In this document: positions 1 through 8,902 of the stretch, in pieces
Numbering within the stretch: the stretch's first letter is position 1
How the letters are laid out: each line of letters starts with the position of its first letter
Source: Acidobacteriota bacterium
Lineage (GTDB): Bacteria > Acidobacteriota > Blastocatellia > Pyrinomonadales > Pyrinomonadaceae
Length of the DNA stretch: 64,000 nucleotides
NCBI GenBank assembly: GCA_046733535.1
Contig: JBKPPH010000055.1
Span: forward strand, 285 to 64,284
Direction: 5' to 3'
The notes under the pieces: model-generated
What the model was told of the DNA's origin: nothing
Seen by the model: the letters and a program-made list of their open reading frames with translations, nothing else
The model's database searches: none
Translations under genes and position numbers: made by a program

Positions 1-189
1 CACGCGCGCCGATGTGATCGCCGGAACGAAGAACGCCAAGCAGAGCGCACTCACCCAAACCCAGTGGCGATATCGCGCGACAGAATTTCGCAAGAGCATC
101 GAGCTAAGAGCGGCGAGCGCCGCGATGAGTGCAATTTGCCAGCAGGCGTTCAAGAGAAAGGTCAACAGCAGTTGGCTACTCGTTCTCAT
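1..189 (-). CDS. BlaR1/MecR1-like M56 sensor-peptidase, N-terminal fragment (continues past left edge)
   Basis: Hand translation of the minus strand from ATG 189-187 gives MRTSSQLLLTFLLNACWQIALIAALAALSSMLLRNSVARYRHWVWVSALCLAFFVPAITSARV.. The hydrophobic N-terminus has an LR-x-SA-x-RY-x-x-W pattern typical of BlaR1 N-termini. It overlaps the stop of the BlaI-like gene by 14 nt (blaI-blaR1 operon layout), and AAGGAAG lies 6 nt upstream. It is not in the ORF track because no stop lies in the window. Confidence 0.55.
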   Translation of the reverse strand, partial: MRTSSQLLLTFLLNACWQIALIAALAALSSMLLRNSVARYRHWVWVSALCLAFFVPAITSARV

Positions 190-568
190 CGGCTTCTTCC
201 TTGACCTGTTCTACGAGCTTTTGCAAGCGCGCGAGTTTTTCCGGCGTGAGATGCTTGGTTTCGACGAGGCTCATCACGAGGCTTTCGGCCGAGCCACCGA
301 AAAGACGATCGACAACGTCTTTCACGTGCTTGCCGACGACTTGTTTGCGGCTGACCGCAGGCTTGTAAAAGTAAGCGCGATTCTTCAGCGTCCGTTTCGC
401 TTTACCTTTGCGCTCGAGAATGTTGAGCATGGTCTGGACGGTGGTATAAGCGAGATCGCGTTTGAGTTTTTGCTGCACGGTTTGCACGTTCGCGGGTCCG
501 GTTTCCCAGAGCACGTGCATGATCTCCAACTCGAGCGGCGTCAGGTTCTCCGTCTTCGGTCGCGCCAT
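176..568 (-). CDS. BlaI/MecI/CopY-family transcriptional repressor
   Basis: 130-aa ORF. The winged-helix N-terminus LTPLELEIMHVLWETGPANVQTVQQKL..AYTTVQTMLNILERKG is typical of the penicillinase-repressor family. A BlaR1-like gene follows on the same strand. Confidence 0.85.
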   Translation of the reverse strand: MARPKTENLTPLELEIMHVLWETGPANVQTVQQKLKRDLAYTTVQTMLNILERKGKAKRTLKNRAYFYKPAVSRKQVVGKHVKDVVDRLFGGSAESLVMSLVETKHLTPEKLARLQKLVEQVKEEADENE

Positions 569-574
569 CGTTGT

Positions 575-639
575 CTCCTAAGTTTTTAGGAGTATAGGCG
601 CGACCTAAAACCGTGTCAACTAATTTTTTAGGAGTCGCG
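575..639. promoter_or_regulatory. Candidate operator/promoter repeats in the blaI / TIR-gene divergent region
   Basis: Perfect inverted repeat CTCCTAA-GTTT-TTAGGAG (575-592), overlapping the blaI RBS. A second, imperfect inverted repeat CGCGACCTAAAA..TTTTAGGAGTCGCG lies at 599-639. The 11-mer TTTTTAGGAGT occurs twice (583-593, 625-635). Function is inferred from position only. Confidence 0.3.
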
Positions 640-757
640 GAACTGTTTGACAACGAGGCTCAGGCGGTTCTACTGTTTCGCTCTCAAAACAGGTCTGTTT
701 GGCCACGCACGCAGAAGGTTCCTTTCGCCACCATTTGTGCGGGTCCGGGATTTCCAT

Positions 758-2458
758 ATGCAACTAGCTGAGTTTCAAAACCAGGCCGACATTCCAGAGC
801 GGCCGTACTTCTATCTCAGTTATGCGCGAGCCGGTGCTGAAGAGACATCGAGGGTGCAGCAGTTTTTCGAAGATCTCTCAGACACAGTTCGCATCCGCGC
901 ACGACTTCCGCTTACGGCAAAGGTCGGCTGTTGCGACGCTTTTGAAGAAAATGCCGGGGATCGCGAAACAGGTGTACGAACAAGTTGCTTGATGATCGCG
1001 CTGCTCTCGCCCGCTTACTTCCAAGACGAAACGGCTGGAGGAGAATGGCAGATCTTTGAAATGCGAAAGGCAAAGGCGAGCTCCACCGATCAGAAAGCGC
1101 TTACACGTTCAATCGTTCCCATAACCTGGTCGCCTTATGCCGGTCCGCTGCCGTTCGTCGTCAGGCAAACGCCAGTTTTTGGTAAGAACGTGAATGGAGG
1201 TCACACACAGGAAACAGTCGGCAGCATGCTTCGATGGCGGGGAAAGAATAGGATGTATGCTGATTTTGTAAAAAGCCTGGCTGATTACATTGTTACTTCC
1301 ACAGCTTCTTTTCAGTTGCCTGAACTCGATGAAACCCCGGATGAAGTGCCGAACGCGTTCATAGATCGCGATGACTCAGGAGCGACTGCACACACCACTA
1401 ACACTCTGCCAAATCAAGAGGGCTATCAGACTCTAAACCAGAACGTAAACCAGAACCTTCTCATTATCGATGGGGCCTTTCTTAAAGGTTTCGTTGAACA
1501 GGTCAAACAAACTGCGCCCCGACCTGCTCCAACTCCCAAGGTAGAAGCATCCGGTGAAACCACCCAGTCGAGTAAAGCAGCCAAGGAAAAATATCTCGTC
1601 TTCGCAATCGACGATGACGCCGAATTGGGACAAATCGAAGCTACGGCCGGTTTCTCTCCTGAGTTCGAGGTAAAGGGTTACAAGGACTCTGACCAACTTC
1701 TAAACGACATCAGCAATCTTTTAGCTGACCGTCAGGAGCCCGATCTCGTGGTGCTGAATCCGGAAATAACTATGCCCAAAACGCACCGGTACAAATTGAT
1801 CGATGCGCTGCTGGACAAAGGAATTCCCTCGGCCATTTTGGCCACCTCTAAAGATCCTGACGCGGGACGCTCGTTGAAGTCCGCCGGCATTAACGACCTG
1901 GTTGGCATCCTGCCAAAACCTTTTACTTCGCTGGACTTGCTGCAGCGGATGAGACATTGGGCGAAAACAGGAAGAGATAAACGGTATCGAAGAGGAAGAT
2001 CAGATCAGCGACCTGTATTTCTGAGTTTTTCAACCCGGGATGAGGCGATGGCAAGCAAGCTCTGCAAATGGCTTGAGCTTCGCGAGATCGGAGTTTGGTA
2101 CTCCATGCAGTCTTTGGAGCCGGGAGATCCGTGGATTGACAAAATAACTCAGGGTCTCGTTAACGCCGAAGTTTTCATTGCCTTGATCTCCAATCATTAT
2201 TCTGAGTCTAAGTTTTGCCAGGCAGAACTCGGGATCACACTTGATCGACTGCCCGCAGCGTCGAATAACCTTCGTGTGATTCCAGTTCTTTACAACTCTC
2301 CCACTACTGCTCTCGACGATCCACAAATCAAGAAGGTTATGAACCAACAGGCAGTAAAAATTTCCGATATGGAATGGCTGCCGGGACTTCAAGACATGCT
2401 GCTGAGTGTTCAGAACTTTTTAAAGCGACATCATTCTGAACCTTCCTCCGCGTTGTGA
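758..2458 (+). CDS. Three-module protein: TIR-like (FxsC-type) domain, Asp-less receiver (pseudo-REC), canonical TIR domain
   Basis: The ORF track gives 647..2458 from a TTG; the first ATG is at 758. The N-terminus reads PYFYLSYARAG (TIR-like beta-A). The middle reads YLVFAIDDD..DLVVLN..AILATSKD..ILPKPF, a CheY-like fold with Asn at the acceptor position. The C-terminus reads RPVFLSFSTRDE..VFIALISNHYSESKFCQAELG (TIR). Confidence 0.8.
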   Translation: MQLAEFQNQADIPERPYFYLSYARAGAEETSRVQQFFEDLSDTVRIRARLPLTAKVGCCDAFEENAGDRETGVRTSCLMIALLSPAYFQDETAGGEWQIFEMRKAKASSTDQKALTRSIVPITWSPYAGPLPFVVRQTPVFGKNVNGGHTQETVGSMLRWRGKNRMYADFVKSLADYIVTSTASFQLPELDETPDEVPNAFIDRDDSGATAHTTNTLPNQEGYQTLNQNVNQNLLIIDGAFLKGFVEQVKQTAPRPAPTPKVEASGETTQSSKAAKEKYLVFAIDDDAELGQIEATAGFSPEFEVKGYKDSDQLLNDISNLLADRQEPDLVVLNPEITMPKTHRYKLIDALLDKGIPSAILATSKDPDAGRSLKSAGINDLVGILPKPFTSLDLLQRMRHWAKTGRDKRYRRGRSDQRPVFLSFSTRDEAMASKLCKWLELREIGVWYSMQSLEPGDPWIDKITQGLVNAEVFIALISNHYSESKFCQAELGITLDRLPAASNNLRVIPVLYNSPTTALDDPQIKKVMNQQAVKISDMEWLPGLQDMLLSVQNFLKRHHSEPSSAL

Positions 2459-2913
2459 AGAAGACGCTCATCCACACACTCATCTACGGCCTATGCGGCG
2501 GGATTCTGATCGTCGGGCTCAAGCTGATCGAGTTTCGCTTCCTCGTCCAACAGCACTCAATCGAGATCTATGGCGGGCTCATCGCCGCCCTCTTCGCCGC
2601 TCTCGGCATCTGGCTTGGCTTGAAGTTGACGAAAAATAAGGAAGTCGTAGTGGTGAAGGAAGTGCCCGTGCCAGCCGCCACACCACCTTTCGCGTTAAAT
2701 GAGGAGCGCCTCAAAGATCTCGGCATCACCAAACGCGAGCTCGAAATCCTCGAGCTGATCGCACAGGGCCTCAGCAACCGTGAAATCGCGGACAAACTCT
2801 TCGTCAGCGAAAACACTGTCAAGACCCACTCAAGCCGTCTCTTCGATAAACTCCGTGCGCGCCGCCGCACTCAAGCCGTACAGATCGGAAAAGAGATGGG
2901 ACTGATTCCTTAA
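2455..2913 (+). CDS. Membrane-anchored LuxR/FixJ-type HTH regulator (2 TM helices + HTH)
   Basis: Two N-terminal hydrophobic helices, then LTKRELEILELIAQGLSNREIADKLFVSENTVKTHSSRLFDKL (LuxR-type HTH). The GTG start overlaps the upstream stop (GTGA, 2455-2458). Confidence 0.8.
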   Translation: MKKTLIHTLIYGLCGGILIVGLKLIEFRFLVQQHSIEIYGGLIAALFAALGIWLGLKLTKNKEVVVVKEVPVPAATPPFALNEERLKDLGITKRELEILELIAQGLSNREIADKLFVSENTVKTHSSRLFDKLRARRRTQAVQIGKEMGLIP

Positions 2914-3042
2914 CTCAAAAGTATGATTTATCGCGGCAACTGCGAAATCACCCGAAAGTATGACGACAACCCCAGCGCACAACAGTAAATTGCGCCGCGA
3001 GTTTCAAGTTCACCACTACAAAATCGATAAGGAGACGTTCTT

Positions 3043-3600
3043 ATGAAAAGAGTCGTTTTGACGTTCGGTTTGATCTCCGGCGCGATCCTGTCCGCGATGA
3101 TGAGCCTCAACGTCGCTTTCATCGAAAACATCGGGTTCGACAAAGGGGTGGTCATCGGCTACACCACGATGGTGCTGGCGTTTCTACTCGTGTTCTTTGG
3201 AATTCGATCTTATCGCGACACAGTCGGCGGAGGACGTATCAGTTTTCTCAGAGCACTCAGTATCGGGCTGTTGATAGTGGCGATTGCCGGCGTCGTGTAC
3301 GTCGTAACGTGGGAAATTCTCTATTTCAACTTCATGCCTGATTTCATTGAGAAATACACGGCTTACGCGACCCAGGAGCTGCGTAACTCGGGTAAGCCGC
3401 CCGCTCAGATCGAGCAGGAACTCCAGGAGATGAACAGAATGATGACTCTCTACAGAAACAATATCTTCGTGAATCTGGCGTTTACATTTCTCGAGCCGCT
3501 GCCGGTCGGCGTCATCATGACGTTAATTTCCGCTCTCATACTCCGCCGGCGTGAACCGAAAGAGCGCCTGGCGACAGGATTACCGGATTTACAGAATTGA
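3043..3600 (+). CDS. DUF4199-like integral membrane protein
   Basis: AAGGAG RBS at 3029-3034. Four hydrophobic segments with the pattern GLISGAILSAMM..GYTTMVLAFLLVFFGIRSYRD..GG.ISF, recalled from DUF4199 proteins. The family call is from memory only. Confidence 0.55.
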   Translation: MKRVVLTFGLISGAILSAMMSLNVAFIENIGFDKGVVIGYTTMVLAFLLVFFGIRSYRDTVGGGRISFLRALSIGLLIVAIAGVVYVVTWEILYFNFMPDFIEKYTAYATQELRNSGKPPAQIEQELQEMNRMMTLYRNNIFVNLAFTFLEPLPVGVIMTLISALILRRREPKERLATGLPDLQN

Positions 3601-3655
3601 CAGGATCAAGTAAAAATCCTGTCTATCTTGCGAATCCTGTAATCCTGTCAAAAAC

Positions 3656-6600
3656 ATGATGATCAACTCCGCGCTGCGTTTCCTGCTCTGCCTGCTGTTT
3701 CTCAGTTCAATCGTTCACGGCCAACCGGCGGATTTCTCCCCCGCGCTGAAGTGGCGGATGATCGGGCCATTTCGCGGCGGACGCACGGTCGGCGCGACCG
3801 GCGTTCCGGGACAACCAAACGTCTTTTATATAGGAGTCAACAACGGCGGCGTTTGGAAAACCACCGACTTCGGACACACGTGGAAACCCATCTTTGACGA
3901 TCAGCCAACGGGTTCGATCGGCGCGCTTGCGATTGCGCCGTCGAACCCCGAAACGATTTACGTCGGCAGCGGCGAGGGACTCCAGCGGCCCGACCTTTCC
4001 ACCGGCGACGGCATTTACAAATCGACTGACGGCGGCAAGACATGGCGACACCTCGGACTGCGCAACGCGCAACAGATCGGCGCGATACTCGTTGATCCGC
4101 GGGATCCGAATCGCGTTTACGTCGCGGCGTTGGGACATCCATACGGCCCCAACGAGGAACGCGGAATCTTTCGCTCGACCGACGGCGGCGAGACGTGGCA
4201 GAAAGTCTTATATAAGGACGAGAACACTGGCGCCATCGCACTCGTGTTCGATCCGAGCAATGCAAAAGTCATCTACGCGGATTTGTGGTCGGCGCGGCAA
4301 GGTCCGTGGGAAAACGGCGCGTGGCAAGGACCAGGCAGCGGACTTTACAAGACAACGGACGGCGGCGATACGTGGCACCAGTTGACGAAAGGTTTGCCGA
4401 CGTTCGAGCAAGGTCTCGGCCGCATCGGTATCGCAGTCGCTCCGAGTGATCCAAACACCGTTTACGCGACAGTCGATGCGCCACAGCTCGGAGGCATTTA
4501 TCGCTCTGACGACGCAGGGGAGAATTGGCGACGCGTCGGCACCGACAGACGCGCGTGGGCACGCGGCAGTGACTTCGCCGAGATCGACGTCGATCCTCGC
4601 AACAAGGAACTCGTCTACACTTCGTCGATAGCCGTTTATCGTTCAACTGACGGCGGCAAAACGTTCACTGCGTTCAAAGGTGCGCCGGGCGGCGACGATT
4701 ACCACACCCTCTGGATCAATCCTGACACTCCGCAGATCATGTTGCTCGCCAGTGACCAGGGCGCGGTCGTCAGCGTCAACGGTGGCGAAACGTGGAGCTC
4801 GTGGTACAACCAACCGACCGCGCAGTTCTACCACGTCATTACCGACAATGAATTTCCGTACTGGGTTTACGGCGGACAGCAGGAGAGCGGCTCCGCGGGC
4901 GTGAAGAGTCGCGGCGATAATGGCGCGATTACGTTCCGCGACTGGCGCACCGTCGGCGTTGAAGAGTACGGCTACGTCGCGCCCGATCCACTTCACCCGA
5001 ACCTGATCTACGGCGGCAAGGCGACGCGCTTCGACATGACCACGGGCGAGGTGCAAAACGTCGCGCCTGAAATTCTGCGCAGTGGCAAGTACAGATTTCT
5101 TCGCACCGCGCCGATTCTCTTCTCGCCTGTCGATCCGCGTGTGCTTTACCTTGCGGGTAACGTGTTGTTCAAGACGACGAATGGCGGTTCGAGTTGGGAA
5201 GTTATCAGTCCCGATCTTTCACGCGAGAAGCCTGACGTGCCGGAGAGCATCGGCGTCTTTCGTCGGCCCGAGATGGCGACGCAACCACGACGCGGTGTGA
5301 TCTACGCCGTTGCGCCGTCGCCGAAAGATGTGAATGTGATCTGGGCGGGCACAGACGATGGGCTAATTCATGTCACGCGAGACGGCGGCAAAACGTGGAA
5401 GAACGTGACACCTCCGGCAATCACTTCGTGGAGCAAGATCTCTCAGATCGACGCCAGCCACTCCGATCTCAACACCGCTTACGTCGCGGTAAACCGGATC
5501 AGGCTCGACGATCAGAAACCGCACATCTATCGCACCACCGACGGCGGCACAACGTGGAAAGAGATTGTCAGCGGATTGCCGGATGGTCCAGTCAACACGG
5601 TGAAGGAAGATCCCCAACGTCGAGGATTGTTGTTTGCCGGAACTGAGCTCGCCGTCTTCGTGTCTTTCGACAACGGCGATAGGTGGCAGCCGCTGCGTCT
5701 GAACATGCCGGCCACGTCGATTCGCGATCTCGTGATTCACAACGACGACGTCGTCGTCGGCACGCACGGGCGCTCGTTCTGGATCCTCGACGACATCACA
5801 CCGCTCAGGCAGTACAACTCTGCCCTGCGCGATGCGGACGTTCACCTGTTCGCTCCGCAACTGGCTTATCGTGTTCAGCGCAACGTCAACACCGATACGC
5901 CGCTCCCGCCGGAAGAGCCCGCGGGACAAAATCCACCCGACGGCGCGATCATCAACTATTATTTGCGTCGAGATGCGACGACGCCAGTCACGCTCGAGAT
6001 CTTCGATAGTAAGAACCAACTCGTACGCCGTTATTCAAGCGACGACAAACCGGAACCGGTGAACCCAACCGATTACGCTGTGCCGGAATACTGGTTTCGC
6101 CCGCCTCAGATGCTCGAAACGAAGGCAGGAATGCAACGCTTTATTTGGGACTTGAAATACGCGGCGCCCGCAGCTTACGGACATGGCTTTCCGATATCAG
6201 CCATCTATCGCGACACGCCCCTCTACCCGCTTGGTCCCGCAGTGTTGCCGGGCACATACACCGTGAAGCTGACGGCAAATGGCGCCTCGCGTTCAGAACC
6301 GCTGACCGTGAAGATGGACCCGCGCTTGAAGACGCCGCTCGTCGATCTAACACGACAGTTCACGCTTTCGATCGAGGCGTATCAAGGAATGAACCAAACG
6401 TTCGCGACGGTGGACCAGATCAAAAAACTTCGCGCTCAGATAAAGACTGCGATCGAGCGCGTCGATCGAGGACCACTTGCAGAGGCGCTGAATACGCTCG
6501 ATAAGAAAGCGGCCGCGATCGGCGGCGAGGGACGTGGCGAAGCGGGCTCACCCGGACTGCCCGGTGGAACAATCGACCTGCGTGAGCCGAACCTAACGCG

Positions 6601-6802
6601 TTTGAACGGAGGCTTCTCGTCGTTACTCGAACATCTGCAAAGCGCAGATCTCGCGCCGACAGAGCCGATGGTTACTGCCGCAACTGAGTTGCAAAAAACA
6701 CTGGCGAGACTGATGGCCGACTGGAACGGGTTGAAGACGAAAGACGTCGCCGCAATCAATGAACAACTGCGCGCGGCAAATCAGCCTTTGCTGAACCCGT
6801 GA
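3656..6802 (+). CDS. Secreted BNR/Asp-box repeat protein (sortilin/VPS10-like beta-propellers)
   Basis: Signal peptide, then about ten S/T-x-D-G-G-x-T-W Asp-boxes (STDGGKTW, STDGGETW, TTDGGDTW, TRDGGKTW, TTDGGTTW and others). Confidence 0.85.
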   Translation: MMINSALRFLLCLLFLSSIVHGQPADFSPALKWRMIGPFRGGRTVGATGVPGQPNVFYIGVNNGGVWKTTDFGHTWKPIFDDQPTGSIGALAIAPSNPETIYVGSGEGLQRPDLSTGDGIYKSTDGGKTWRHLGLRNAQQIGAILVDPRDPNRVYVAALGHPYGPNEERGIFRSTDGGETWQKVLYKDENTGAIALVFDPSNAKVIYADLWSARQGPWENGAWQGPGSGLYKTTDGGDTWHQLTKGLPTFEQGLGRIGIAVAPSDPNTVYATVDAPQLGGIYRSDDAGENWRRVGTDRRAWARGSDFAEIDVDPRNKELVYTSSIAVYRSTDGGKTFTAFKGAPGGDDYHTLWINPDTPQIMLLASDQGAVVSVNGGETWSSWYNQPTAQFYHVITDNEFPYWVYGGQQESGSAGVKSRGDNGAITFRDWRTVGVEEYGYVAPDPLHPNLIYGGKATRFDMTTGEVQNVAPEILRSGKYRFLRTAPILFSPVDPRVLYLAGNVLFKTTNGGSSWEVISPDLSREKPDVPESIGVFRRPEMATQPRRGVIYAVAPSPKDVNVIWAGTDDGLIHVTRDGGKTWKNVTPPAITSWSKISQIDASHSDLNTAYVAVNRIRLDDQKPHIYRTTDGGTTWKEIVSGLPDGPVNTVKEDPQRRGLLFAGTELAVFVSFDNGDRWQPLRLNMPATSIRDLVIHNDDVVVGTHGRSFWILDDITPLRQYNSALRDADVHLFAPQLAYRVQRNVNTDTPLPPEEPAGQNPPDGAIINYYLRRDATTPVTLEIFDSKNQLVRRYSSDDKPEPVNPTDYAVPEYWFRPPQMLETKAGMQRFIWDLKYAAPAAYGHGFPISAIYRDTPLYPLGPAVLPGTYTVKLTANGASRSEPLTVKMDPRLKTPLVDLTRQFTLSIEAYQGMNQTFATVDQIKKLRAQIKTAIERVDRGPLAEALNTLDKKAAAIGGEGRGEAGSPGLPGGTIDLREPNLTRLNGGFSSLLEHLQSADLAPTEPMVTAATELQKTLARLMADWNGLKTKDVAAINEQLRAANQPLLNP

Positions 6803-7227
6803 TGCCCGGTGCAAATCCAATCATGTTCTACGACGGCGTGTGCGGGCTGTGCAATCGGCTGGTCCAATTTTTACTGAAGCACGATGAGCGTGGGCGCTTG
6901 CGTTTTGCGTCTTTGCAGAGCGACTTCGCGAAGAAGGTGTTGGGCCGGCATGGTATAGATCCGACGGACCTGGACACCGTTAACGTCGTGGTCAATTATG
7001 ACGAGCCGGATGAGCGAGTGCTGCAAAGGTCTGATGCGGTCCTTCGAGCAGGACGCGAGCTAGGTGGTTTTTGGGGCACGTCTTCGTCGATCGCCGGAGT
7101 CGTACCGCATGCGCTTCGCGATCTGGCCTACCGCTTCGTCGCTCAAAATCGATATCGCGTGTTTGGAAAATACGACACCTGCATGCTGCCCGATCCGAAT
7201 CAGAGGAGTAGATTCCTTGATATTTAA
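6802..7227 (+). CDS. DCC-family thiol-disulfide oxidoreductase (DUF393)
   Basis: N-terminal FYDGVCGLCNRLVQFLLKHD motif (C-x-x-C). ATG 6802 overlaps the upstream TGA (6800-6802). Confidence 0.8.
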   Translation: MPGANPIMFYDGVCGLCNRLVQFLLKHDERGRLRFASLQSDFAKKVLGRHGIDPTDLDTVNVVVNYDEPDERVLQRSDAVLRAGRELGGFWGTSSSIAGVVPHALRDLAYRFVAQNRYRVFGKYDTCMLPDPNQRSRFLDI

Positions 7228-8902
7228 ATCCGCCTTCATCTGCGTTTTTCTGTGGTCGATGGTTTTGATGCCGTTGCCGCAATCACCGCAATACGATCTC
7301 CTGATCAGAAACGGGCGCATCGTCGACGGCTCCGGACGCGCCGCCTACATCGCCGACGTCGCAATCAAAGGCGATCGCATCGTCCGCATCGGCAAACTCG
7401 CGCAAGCAACAGCTTCACGAACGATCGACGCGCAAGGTCTCGTCGTCGCACCTGGCTTCATCGACATGCTGGGCCAGTCTGAAACCTACCTGCTGATCGA
7501 TCCGCGTGCGATGAGCAAAGTGATGATGGGCGTCACGACCGAGATCACCGGCGAAGGCGAGTCGATCGCGCCGATCAACGAGCGCCAGATCAAGGAGCAG
7601 GCTGACTTCCTGCGCCGCTTCAATCTCACGATCGATTGGCGCACGCTCGACGAATACTTCAAACGCCTCGAGAAGCAAGGATCAGGCGTGAATCTCGGCA
7701 CGTTTGTCGGCGCGACTCAGGTTCGCGAACACGTCATCGGTTACGACGACCGACCACCGACTCCTGCGGAGTTGGAGCAGATGAAGAAACTCGTGGCCGA
7801 TGCGATGCGCGAAGGCGCGCTCGGACTTTCTACTTCGCTCCAATACGTGCCGGCACGTTTTGCTGACACTAAAGAATTGGTCGAGCTTGCAAAGGTGGCG
7901 CGCCAGTACGGCGGCATCTACGCAACTCATCAACGCAGTGAAGCAAACAGGATCGACGCGTCGTTGGACGAAGTCTTCGAGATCGCGCGGAAGGCGCAGA
8001 TACCGGTTGAGATCTGGCACCTGAAGACCGCGTACAAGAAGAACTGGGGCCGCATGTCGCACGTGCTCTCGCGCATCAAGCAGGCGCGCGCGCAAGGCCT
8101 CGATGTTACAGCAGACATTTATCCTTACATCGCGGGCAGCACGTCCCTCAGCGCGTGTTTGCCGCCCTGGGCGCTCGAAGGTGGCGTCGAAAAGATGCTC
8201 GAGCGTCTGCGCGATCCGGCGACGCGGCAACGTTTGAAGAAAGAGATCTCGGAGGACCAGCAGGAGTGGGAAAATATCTATCTCGGAAGCGATGGACCGG
8301 GAGGAGTCTTGATCAGCGCGGTTGTCAATCGCGAGTTGGAGCCGTTGCAAGGCAAACGTGTTTCAGAGATTGCAGCGGAACAGAAAAAAGATCCGCTCGA
8401 TGCACTGTTTGATCTGCTGCTGGCTGACAACGGCCAGACGAGCGCGATCTATTTCATGATGAGCGAAGCCGACATGCGCGCCGCGATGCAGGCGCCGTTC
8501 GTCAGCTTTTGCACTGACAGTGGCGCCCGAGCGACAGATGGCCCACTCGCCGGATCGAAATCACACCCGCGTGGCTGGGGAAGTTATCCGCGCATTCTTG
8601 GTCACTATGTGCGTGACGAAAAAATCCTGTCCCTCGAAGCTGCGATTCACAAGATGACCGGAGGCCCTGCTGCGCGCGTCGGCTTACGCGATCGCGGTTT
8701 GATTCGTGAAGGAATGTTCGCCGACATCACGATTTTCGATCCCGCGAAGGTGATCGATCGCGCCACCTTCGAGTCGCCCAATCAATACCCAACCGGCATC
8801 GAATACGTGCTGGTAAACGGGCAAGTCAGCGTCGATAAAGCGCAGCGCACGAGCGCTCTCGCGGGGCGCGTGCTGCGTGGCCCGGGTTCAGGCCGCAGAT
8901 AA
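7217..8902 (+). CDS. N-acyl-D-amino-acid deacylase (D-aminoacylase) family amidohydrolase
   Basis: YDLLIRNGRIVDGSG..VAIKGDRIVRIG..VVAPGFIDM.. and the C-terminal ADITIFDP..VLVNG are typical of the family. The likely start is TTG 7217 (GGAG at 7204-7207, signal-like N-terminus) or ATG 7259. The track's 7064 start overlaps the upstream gene. Confidence 0.8.
   Translation: MIFKSAFICVFLWSMVLMPLPQSPQYDLLIRNGRIVDGSGRAAYIADVAIKGDRIVRIGKLAQATASRTIDAQGLVVAPGFIDMLGQSETYLLIDPRAMSKVMMGVTTEITGEGESIAPINERQIKEQADFLRRFNLTIDWRTLDEYFKRLEKQGSGVNLGTFVGATQVREHVIGYDDRPPTPAELEQMKKLVADAMREGALGLSTSLQYVPARFADTKELVELAKVARQYGGIYATHQRSEANRIDASLDEVFEIARKAQIPVEIWHLKTAYKKNWGRMSHVLSRIKQARAQGLDVTADIYPYIAGSTSLSACLPPWALEGGVEKMLERLRDPATRQRLKKEISEDQQEWENIYLGSDGPGGVLISAVVNRELEPLQGKRVSEIAAEQKKDPLDALFDLLLADNGQTSAIYFMMSEADMRAAMQAPFVSFCTDSGARATDGPLAGSKSHPRGWGSYPRILGHYVRDEKILSLEAAIHKMTGGPAARVGLRDRGLIREGMFADITIFDPAKVIDRATFESPNQYPTGIEYVLVNGQVSVDKAQRTSALAGRVLRGPGSGRR

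Follow-up and report, generated by a model that had tools for sequence, protein, structure and literature searches.

Gene and Domain Map of the Locus

The DNA studied here, referred to as the window, is a stretch of 64,000 nucleotides from an Acidobacteriota bacterium of the Pyrinomonadaceae (assembly GCA_046733535.1, contig JBKPPH010000055.1, positions 285 to 64,284 of the forward strand), and the subject of this work is one of its genes, at 758-2458, which lies between a divergent blaI-type repressor gene and the genes of a membrane-anchored LuxR regulator and a DUF4199 membrane protein. The gene encodes a protein of 566 residues made of a TIR-like domain, a CheY-like receiver (REC) whose phospho-acceptor position holds asparagine, and a canonical TIR domain, in this order. 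An earlier note on this DNA had described the open reading frame, the positions of the modules, the Asn and Glu codons of interest and the GTGA overlap with the LuxR gene, and all of them were confirmed. The architecture TIR-like / aspartate-less receiver / TIR can be held with very high confidence. The features of the gene are as follows.

758-2458, plus strand: open reading frame with ATG start, 566 residues, TIR-like / pseudo-receiver / TIR protein
803-1309, plus strand: FxsC-type TIR-like domain (residues 16-184), by FxsC_Nterm profile, model of the isolated module and PDB matches
1367-1582, plus strand: linker (residues 204-275) of low model confidence (pLDDT below 50), probably disordered
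1442-1513, plus strand: conserved short motif within the linker (residues 229-252, NQNLLIIDGAFLKGFVEQVKQT), with residues 240-248 predicted helical
1586-1990, plus strand: CheY-like receiver (residues 277-411), by (beta-alpha)5 fold, family profile and Foldseek
1757-1759, plus strand: codon AAT of Asn334, the phospho-acceptor position at the end of beta3, by sequence reading and model
1964-2008, plus strand: end of receiver helix alpha5 and basic linker KTGRDKRYRRGRSDQ joining receiver to TIR, a conserved GRxRR-type linker
2009-2434, plus strand: canonical TIR domain (residues 418-559), by TIR_2, Foldseek and family profile
2225-2227, plus strand: codon GAA of Glu490, equivalent of the catalytic Glu, by alignment to solved TIRs

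The ATG at 758 is the likely start codon, with the TTG at 647 as a longer alternative, because homologues begin 10-16 residues before PYFYLSY and the stretch 646-688 is conserved as non-coding DNA. The protein is predicted to be soluble, since its Kyte-Doolittle hydropathy over 19 residues peaks at 1.08, and no paralogue was found elsewhere in the window.

The folds were evaluated with profiles, with two AlphaFold models (the whole protein and the N-terminal module alone) and with Foldseek, and all of these concordantly supported the TIR-like, receiver and TIR folds. The whole-protein model had a pLDDT of 71 and a pTM of 0.46. Considering that its inter-domain confidence was low, the packing of the domains was left out of our conclusions.

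Homologues with Asn at the acceptor position that are close to the window protein are called here the Asn clade, and those that keep the aspartate are referred to as Asp-type. The linker motif at residues 229-252 has the highest mean pairwise identity of all segments in the Asn clade (70%), and strings of the form hFhIDxxFhKxLAxQhxET that resemble it are present in many Asp-type members. The basic linker between receiver and TIR is 68% identical in the Asn clade, and its GRxRR type is kept across the REC-TIR family.

The N-Terminal Module Is TIR-Like

Residues 16-182 match the NCBIfam model FxsC_Nterm with an E-value of 1.1e-32. The N-terminal module modelled alone reached a pLDDT of 78 and a pTM of 0.80, and its search against the PDB gave the TIR domain of MyD88 as the best match (E 3.5e-4), followed by weaker matches to TRAM, TLR10, SPARTA and MAL. 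In the homologue P0017 the Pfam TIR_2 match also falls in this module. By profile and structure the module is thus placed inside the TIR fold, and its description as an FxsC-type TIR-like domain in the earlier note was borne out.

The comparison with FxsC of the FxSxx-COOH system (NF040588 and TIGR04276) is limited to this domain. The window protein has no match to the C-terminal domain TIGR04276, which is present in the true FxsC proteins P0214, P0220 and P0235, it has no Fxs neighbours, and its FxsC_Nterm score of 113.5 bits stays under the curated cutoff of 130 bits; the Asp-type relatives P0018 and P0145 reach 133-134 bits, above that cutoff. The module carries the motif W97-x-x-x-E101 (codons 1046-1048 and 1058-1060), of which E101 is invariant within the Asn clade; in the wider family, as in true FxsC proteins, this residue varies.

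The Receiver Lacks the Phospho-Acceptor Aspartate

The Pfam profile Response_reg (PF00072) gave no match in the window protein itself and matched 10 of the 19 family members. Compared with solved receivers, the family profile found StyR (1e-7), NarL, NtrC and CtrA, with E-values ranging from 1e-7 to 1e-5. In the model, residues 279-411 form a (beta-alpha)5 unit. Foldseek, run on the whole model, returned PleD as its top match, and the receivers CheY4 and VicR at a target TM-score of 0.75. D285/D286, N334 and K387, which follow strands beta1, beta3 and beta5, coincide in the predicted structure with D12/D13, D57 and K109 of CheY, and S364, where beta4 ends, coincides with T87. The proposal of a CheY-like receiver with Asn at 1757-1759 was therefore sustained by the AAT codon, by the fold of the model and by the PF00072 matches of homologues, and so was the retention of the acidic pocket (D285/D286), the Ser (S364) and the Lys (K387).

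The acceptor is Asn in all 14 sequences of the close clade. Elsewhere in the family it is Asp in nearly all members, with Asn in two others, Ser once and Gly once. Mean identity within the Asn clade is 61% for the N-terminal TIR-like domain, 56% for the receiver and 60% for the TIR domain. Because the receiver is about as conserved as both TIR modules, it is still under constraint and not decaying. As a response regulator the protein has the receiver fold and the profile homology, and lacks the acceptor Asp (Asn334); as an aspartate-less receiver it keeps the fold, has the acceptor replaced and is constrained as a domain. Known aspartate-less receivers (HP1043/HsrA, ChxR, FrzS and the second receiver of PleD) likewise have the CheY fold with the acceptor replaced and the pocket largely kept, but they are fused to DNA-binding, coiled-coil or GGDEF outputs, whereas the receiver of the window protein is fused to TIR.

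No histidine kinase gene was found at the window locus or at the homologous loci examined. This is weak evidence, because orphan response regulators, with no adjacent kinase, exist.

The C-Terminal TIR Domain Keeps the Catalytic-Position Glu

Pfam TIR_2 covers residues 420-523 (E 5e-26, 92 bits, cutoff 28), and the Pfam TIR model reaches 38.7 bits in the same module (cutoff 21.3). Foldseek aligned it with the TIR domains of RPS4, L7, MAL, SARM1, Cat1 and SPARTA at target TM-scores of 0.6-0.7, and the family profile matches L6/L7 at about 1e-12. The codon GAA at 2225-2227 encodes E490, which in the alignment occupies the Glu position of the W-x-x-x-E motif of Cat1, PdTIR and TcpB, in agreement with the canonical TIR and catalytic-position Glu that had been claimed. 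That Glu is the catalytic residue of TIRs that cleave nicotinamide adenine dinucleotide (NAD). Over roughly 90 diverse sequences, the Glu at the position of E490 and the Cys that precedes it are almost invariant.

Taking into account that the N-terminal module has the adaptor TIRs MyD88, TRAM and MAL as its best structural matches, and that E101 is not conserved across the wider family or FxsC, both TIR-fold domains could be imagined as a non-enzymatic scaffold that only assembles proteins, as animal adaptors do, with a structural role for the Glu. The C-terminal domain argues against this, since its Glu is almost invariant over that diverse set and aligns with the W-x-x-x-E Glu of solved TIRs that include Cat1, PdTIR and TcpB; such a near-invariant Glu is not typical of purely adaptor TIRs. 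We consider a pure scaffold highly improbable.

NAD-cleaving TIR effectors (AbTir, ThsB, Cat1, the TIR-APAZ protein of SPARTA, SARM1 and plant TIRs) share with the window protein the TIR fold, the FLSFS motif of beta-A and the Glu at the catalytic position, at about 15-20% identity. They employ SAVED, CARF, Argonaute, ARM-SAM or NB-LRR modules, where the window protein employs a receiver. Assignment to Thoeris was rejected: the matches to ThsB/ThcB4 are weak and partial (E 5e-5 to 1e-2), and around the gene lie BlaI, LuxR, DUF4199 and a sortilin-like gene, with no ThsA effector (SIR2 or Macro/SLOG). Neither a ThsA-like gene nor another signal-receptor gene adjoins the TIR gene in the window. 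A TIR effector of CBASS or type III CRISPR (TIR-SAVED, Cat1) was also discarded: such effectors have a SAVED or CARF sensor fused to the TIR domain, whereas here the matches are confined to the TIR domain and a receiver takes the middle position.

The Protein Belongs to a Wider REC-TIR Family

A word-indexed search of 5.8 billion proteins yielded 20 clusters. With the family profile, an exhaustive HMMER search recovered about 30 full-length proteins with all three domains (representatives at 50% clustering), many proteins of about 300 residues formed by receiver, basic linker and TIR only, and true FxsC proteins, in which the common part is the N-terminal module only. The view that the architecture was unlike any that could be named did not survive these searches, given the roughly 30 three-domain representatives and the many REC-TIR proteins.

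The two-domain REC-TIR proteins are found by the same profile at E-values of 1e-50 to 1e-80. They have in common with the window protein the receiver, the GRxRR-type linker and a TIR domain with invariant Cys and Glu; unlike it, they have neither the N-terminal TIR-like domain nor the long linker, and they keep the Asp. They are annotated only as "FixJ/CheY/OmpR-family response regulator" or "TIR domain-containing protein", and the database labels of the family are "response regulator" or "TIR domain-containing protein [Pyrinomonadaceae]". No experimental study of the two-domain proteins was found in the literature searched, and our literature search on REC-TIR, FxsC, DUF4199 and TIR with response regulator returned no study of the three-domain architecture.

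The window protein is thus best described, by its sequence relationships, as a branch of a wider, uncharacterised family of response regulators with TIR output, and it adds a three-domain, Asp-less form inside an already existing REC-TIR family. The Asn form appears to be one small clade of Pyrinomonadaceae-like soil Acidobacteria. A scan of species-representative genomes with a close-clade pattern found unrelated TIR/FxsC-like loci and no orthologue, a result that is limited by the pattern and leaves absence unproven.

The Asp-type three-domain relatives lie beside dnaK-dnaJ-YARHG and tsaD, and others are found in different small-gene neighbourhoods. One of them, in the Pyrinomonadaceae metagenome-assembled genome GCA_035278765.1 (L105/L106), is accompanied by PIN, DUF433, Xre-type helix-turn-helix and excisionase-like HTH_17 genes; this region also holds many small open reading frames with no assigned function and looks like an accessory or mobile island. 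A two-domain REC-TIR gene (L024, 5101-5739) is an orphan that adjoins Sua5/YrdC (TsaC family). No LuxR, DUF4199 or histidine kinase gene was found near the Asp-type relatives or the two-domain gene examined. Asp-type relatives also adjoin tsaD in L007 and L008 (7716-8867), and both tsaD and Sua5/YrdC belong to families that act in the t6A modification of tRNA, which may be a coincidence.

The TIR Gene Is an Accessory Insert

The features around the gene are the following.

176-568, minus strand: blaI-type repressor gene (Penicillinase_R), divergent from the TIR gene, by profile match
572-593 and 614-635, no strand assigned: two 22-nt palindromic boxes, CTCCTAA-N4-TTAGGAG, that flank the blaI promoter
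646-688, plus strand: conserved non-coding block with TTGACA (647-652), 18 nt and TACTGT (671-676), by conservation
2455-2913, plus strand: GerE/LuxR-type regulator with GTG start and two hydrophobic, transmembrane segments (E 7.8e-21), a core gene
3043-3600, plus strand: DUF4199 membrane protein with about four hydrophobic segments (E 4.5e-30), the constant partner of LuxR
2913-2970, plus strand: cis-element between LuxR and DUF4199, a 14-nt direct repeat with copies at 2913-2926 and 2950-2963, by conservation

Loci that carry the TIR gene (filled) and loci that lack it (empty) share their sequence from the start of blaI through the second palindromic box. After this box, filled loci continue with the 646-688 block, which the five TIR-bearing loci all have and the empty sites lack, and empty loci continue with unrelated sequence. 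The unit that is present or absent spans about 636-2454 and comprises the promoter-like block and the open reading frame. By this comparison, the TIR gene is an accessory insert of about 1.8 kb, subject to presence and absence, between the blaI operators and the start of LuxR, and the 646-688 block is probably the insert's own promoter.

The boundaries of the insert showed no terminal inverted repeats, target duplications or other marks of mobile elements. A foreign origin by base composition was considered and is unsupported: the GC content is 48-55% over 600-3600 (blaI-TIR-LuxR-DUF4199) against 56-60% over 3800-8800, but the dip is no mark of a foreign TIR gene, because it covers the core LuxR and DUF4199 genes. 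The TIR gene itself has 48-54% GC, similar to LuxR and DUF4199, and values rise to 57-60% further downstream. In two empty loci, L020 (4927-4984) and L023 (4916-4987), a GC-rich hairpin with arms of 27-29 nt occupies the position of the TIR gene, and a third, L022, is without it; a leader structure and a small repeat element are both possible readings of this hairpin.

On the blaI side, the promoter of the repressor gene is near-consensus (minus strand, TTGACA, 17 nt, TATACT, 619 to 591). Both palindromic boxes occur in 49 of the 88 locus entries scanned, with no further copies in the window. When loci were examined individually, the boxes were present with blaI and absent in two loci that lack it, and they are probably BlaI operators. 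Besides the window, they are present in L001, L004, L011, L020, L022 and L023 and in about 40 metagenome loci. The M56 sensor gene lies past the window start, as placed in syntenic loci.

The arrangement resembles BlaR1/BlaI (MecR1/MecI, CopY) in having Penicillinase_R and an M56 sensor, two palindromic boxes over the repressor's own promoter and a divergent operon. In the known regulons the divergent gene is that of a beta-lactamase or PBP2a, while here it is LuxR-DUF4199, with or without the TIR gene. The boxes of the window differ in sequence from the classical TACA/TGTA operators, and control of the plus-strand genes by BlaI is putative.

LuxR Is Probably a Neighbour by Insertion

The stop codon of the TIR gene overlaps the GTG start of LuxR (GTGA, 2455-2458), and the overlap, the LuxR protein with two transmembrane segments and the DUF4199 gene after it were all as previously described. 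In the five loci read, the spacing between TIR and LuxR genes goes from a 4-nt overlap to a gap of about 17 nt. No terminator was called between both genes in the window, and the TIR gene is probably co-transcribed with LuxR. In all Asn-type loci with readable flanks, the M56 sensor and BlaI lie leftward and the TIR gene, LuxR with two transmembrane segments and DUF4199 rightward.

LuxR has a much wider distribution than the TIR gene and is also much better conserved. The 8,000 candidates scored all pass an E-value of 1e-8, and the best 120 listed are 83-100% identical. Three long contigs share the synteny CM_2, PDT, DAHP synthase, BlaR1, BlaI, LuxR, DUF4199, sortilin-like/DCC1 and amidohydrolase; in them blaI and LuxR are separated by 115-155 nt, without the TIR gene. 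From metagenomes, 80 loci with LuxR were recovered, of which 45 were informative, that is, blaI-adjacent or TIR-bearing. The sequence upstream of LuxR was distributed as follows.

43 of 80 loci: blaI directly adjacent, no TIR gene
2 of 80 loci: TIR gene present
24 of 80 loci: other arrangements, e.g. DAHP synthase directly, without BlaR1/BlaI
11 of 80 loci: upstream sequence too short for a call

DUF4199 follows LuxR in 63 of the 80 loci, and many of the others are contigs that end just past LuxR. The region upstream of LuxR also varies in L046, L069, L083 and L087 and in L099 and L101, some of them without BlaR1/BlaI and with DAHP synthase adjoining; in others blaI and LuxR are set apart by 400-650 nt more, which in L101 contain a minus-strand open reading frame of 147 residues.

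The earlier note had proposed that the TIR protein is wired to LuxR as a candidate undescribed system, and it had named conserved linkage across genomes as one of the tests. The linkage was not found: 43 of the 45 informative loci and the three long contigs have LuxR without the TIR gene, so that TIR-LuxR-DUF4199 is not a conserved co-occurrence, LuxR-DUF4199 stands mostly alone, and Asp-type relatives are without LuxR. Between filled and empty loci, BlaI is 94-98% and LuxR 79-93% identical; the TIR proteins among filled loci are 53-63% identical. In a neighbour-joining tree of the LuxR DNA, calculated with no bootstrap, four TIR-bearing loci and one empty locus group together and the window falls among empty loci, so the TIR-bearing loci are not monophyletic in this tree. 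We consider with good confidence that LuxR is a neighbour by insertion and not a dedicated partner.

A dedicated TIR-LuxR-DUF4199 system of signalling or defence, in which a nucleotide made by the TIR domain, or the protein itself, controls the membrane LuxR, would account for the position of every Asn-type gene with readable context directly before LuxR at such short spacing, and for the coincidence of the loss of the phospho-acceptor with this location. It has to face the 43 informative loci and three long contigs where LuxR-DUF4199 does without the TIR gene, a LuxR that is as similar as 79-93% in filled and empty loci, and relatives, both Asp-type and two-domain, with no LuxR/DUF4199 nearby. 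Moreover, LuxR has only its two transmembrane segments and GerE, with no recognisable nucleotide-binding domain, and the conserved repeat that follows the gene is independent of the TIR gene. Such a system is quite improbable.

The presence/absence polymorphism at a fixed site and the faster evolution of the TIR gene with respect to its flanks are also what a single-gene abortive-infection system would present, in which a phage triggers TIR assembly and NAD+ depletion, and the pseudo-receiver and N-terminal domain act as sensors. The TIR domain matches profiles of retron-TIR, Thoeris ThcB4/ThsB, PDC-S66, SAVED-TIR and TIR-NLR, and the Asp-type relative in GCA_035278765.1 lies in a region of PIN/DUF433 toxin-antitoxin and Xre-type genes. 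However, these defence-profile matches are all confined to the TIR domain and lie far under the family cutoffs, no defence genes flank the window gene, and other relatives are located among the housekeeping genes dnaK-dnaJ, tsaD, Sua5 and RRF. Receivers are not known as phage sensors, and most family members keep a phosphorylatable Asp, which suggests a two-component input. Abortive infection is in our opinion fairly unlikely.

Repeats Downstream of the TIR Gene

The 9-nt direct repeat reported in the earlier note, AAAGTATGA, is real, with copies at 2918 and 2955; the window holds 3 copies, against 0.26 expected by chance, and the repeat extends to 14 nt. Of the seven loci that were aligned, four carry the TIR gene and three lack it. 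The block AATCAyCCGAAAGTATGACGACA, which contains the second copy, is almost the same in all seven and has an invariant core GAAAGTATGACGACA. The first copy is kept in the window and in two of the empty loci, and is degenerate in the others. Because it is equally conserved in loci without the TIR gene, the 14-nt repeat is assigned, as a predicted cis-element, to the LuxR-DUF4199 module, independently of the TIR gene. A search of Rfam over 400-3800 gave nothing credible, and the conserved LuxR-DUF4199 intergenic block corresponds to no known RNA in it.

Two other repeats were observed. At 3573-3649 there is an inverted repeat of 34 nt, 82% complementary, with a 9-nt loop and repeated CAGGAT/ATCCTG units, which runs across the stop codon of DUF4199 and the space that precedes the sortilin-like gene; no terminator was called there, and its sole Rfam match is a microRNA at chance level. 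An exact 12-nt direct repeat, CACTCAAGCCGT, at 2827-2838 and 2868-2879 (41 nt apart), lies in the coding region of the LuxR helix-turn-helix and is probably due to chance or to similar codons.

Proposed Mechanism and Meaning

The picture that we favour, by a modest measure, is that of a regulator with an NAD-cleaving TIR output under the control of its receiver, encoded by an accessory insert ahead of LuxR. The C-terminal TIR would cleave NAD+, or make a signal derived from ADP-ribose, only upon self-association. This association would be set by the receiver, whose alpha4-beta5-alpha5 face would act together with the conserved alpha5-basic linker, by analogy with the dimer-dependent catalysis of PleD-type regulators. 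The N-terminal TIR-like domain would take part in TIR-TIR assembly or act as a regulatory partner, which seems more likely than a second enzyme. In the Asp-type relatives an unlinked histidine kinase might be the trigger. In the Asn clade phosphorylation at the acceptor site is impossible, so the input would come from elsewhere, and control has probably moved to a bound partner, a ligand or the expression level.

Several points weigh against this picture. NAD cleavage is proposed from the conserved Glu and from homology, and the receiver-controlled assembly is an analogy because the inter-domain geometry of the whole model (pTM 0.46) is unreliable. A scan for sigma-70 consensus called no promoter on the plus strand ahead of either the TIR gene or LuxR; it passed over the promoter-like block, whose second hexamer matches only 3 of 6 positions. 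Finally, a functional tie to LuxR that is specific to the clade may exist, because every Asn-type gene with readable context sits upstream of LuxR, and selection for co-expression could explain why tight or overlapping junctions were kept while the TIR proteins are only 53-63% identical.

A more extended proposal is that REC-TIR proteins are unstudied regulators whose TIR output, NAD+ cleavage or an ADP-ribose signal, is physiological and not only anti-phage, that the receiver of the Asn clade is independent of phosphorylation, and that the gene was captured as the first cistron near BlaR1/BlaI, so that an envelope signal would control both an NAD switch and the membrane LuxR. Taken as a whole, it is distinctly unlikely.

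As regards annotation, tight spacing or the overlap of a start and a stop codon can stem from insertion into an operon and not from a functional system, and the link to LuxR is unfit for defining one. We found no experimental report of a link between phosphorelay and NAD+ chemistry; an active C-terminal TIR would mean that the REC-TIR family joins two-component phosphorelay directly to NAD+ chemistry. Asp and Asn receivers can be compared as they occur in nature by means of the window clade, and close relatives that have this locus with or without the TIR gene form a clean natural knock-in/knock-out pair.

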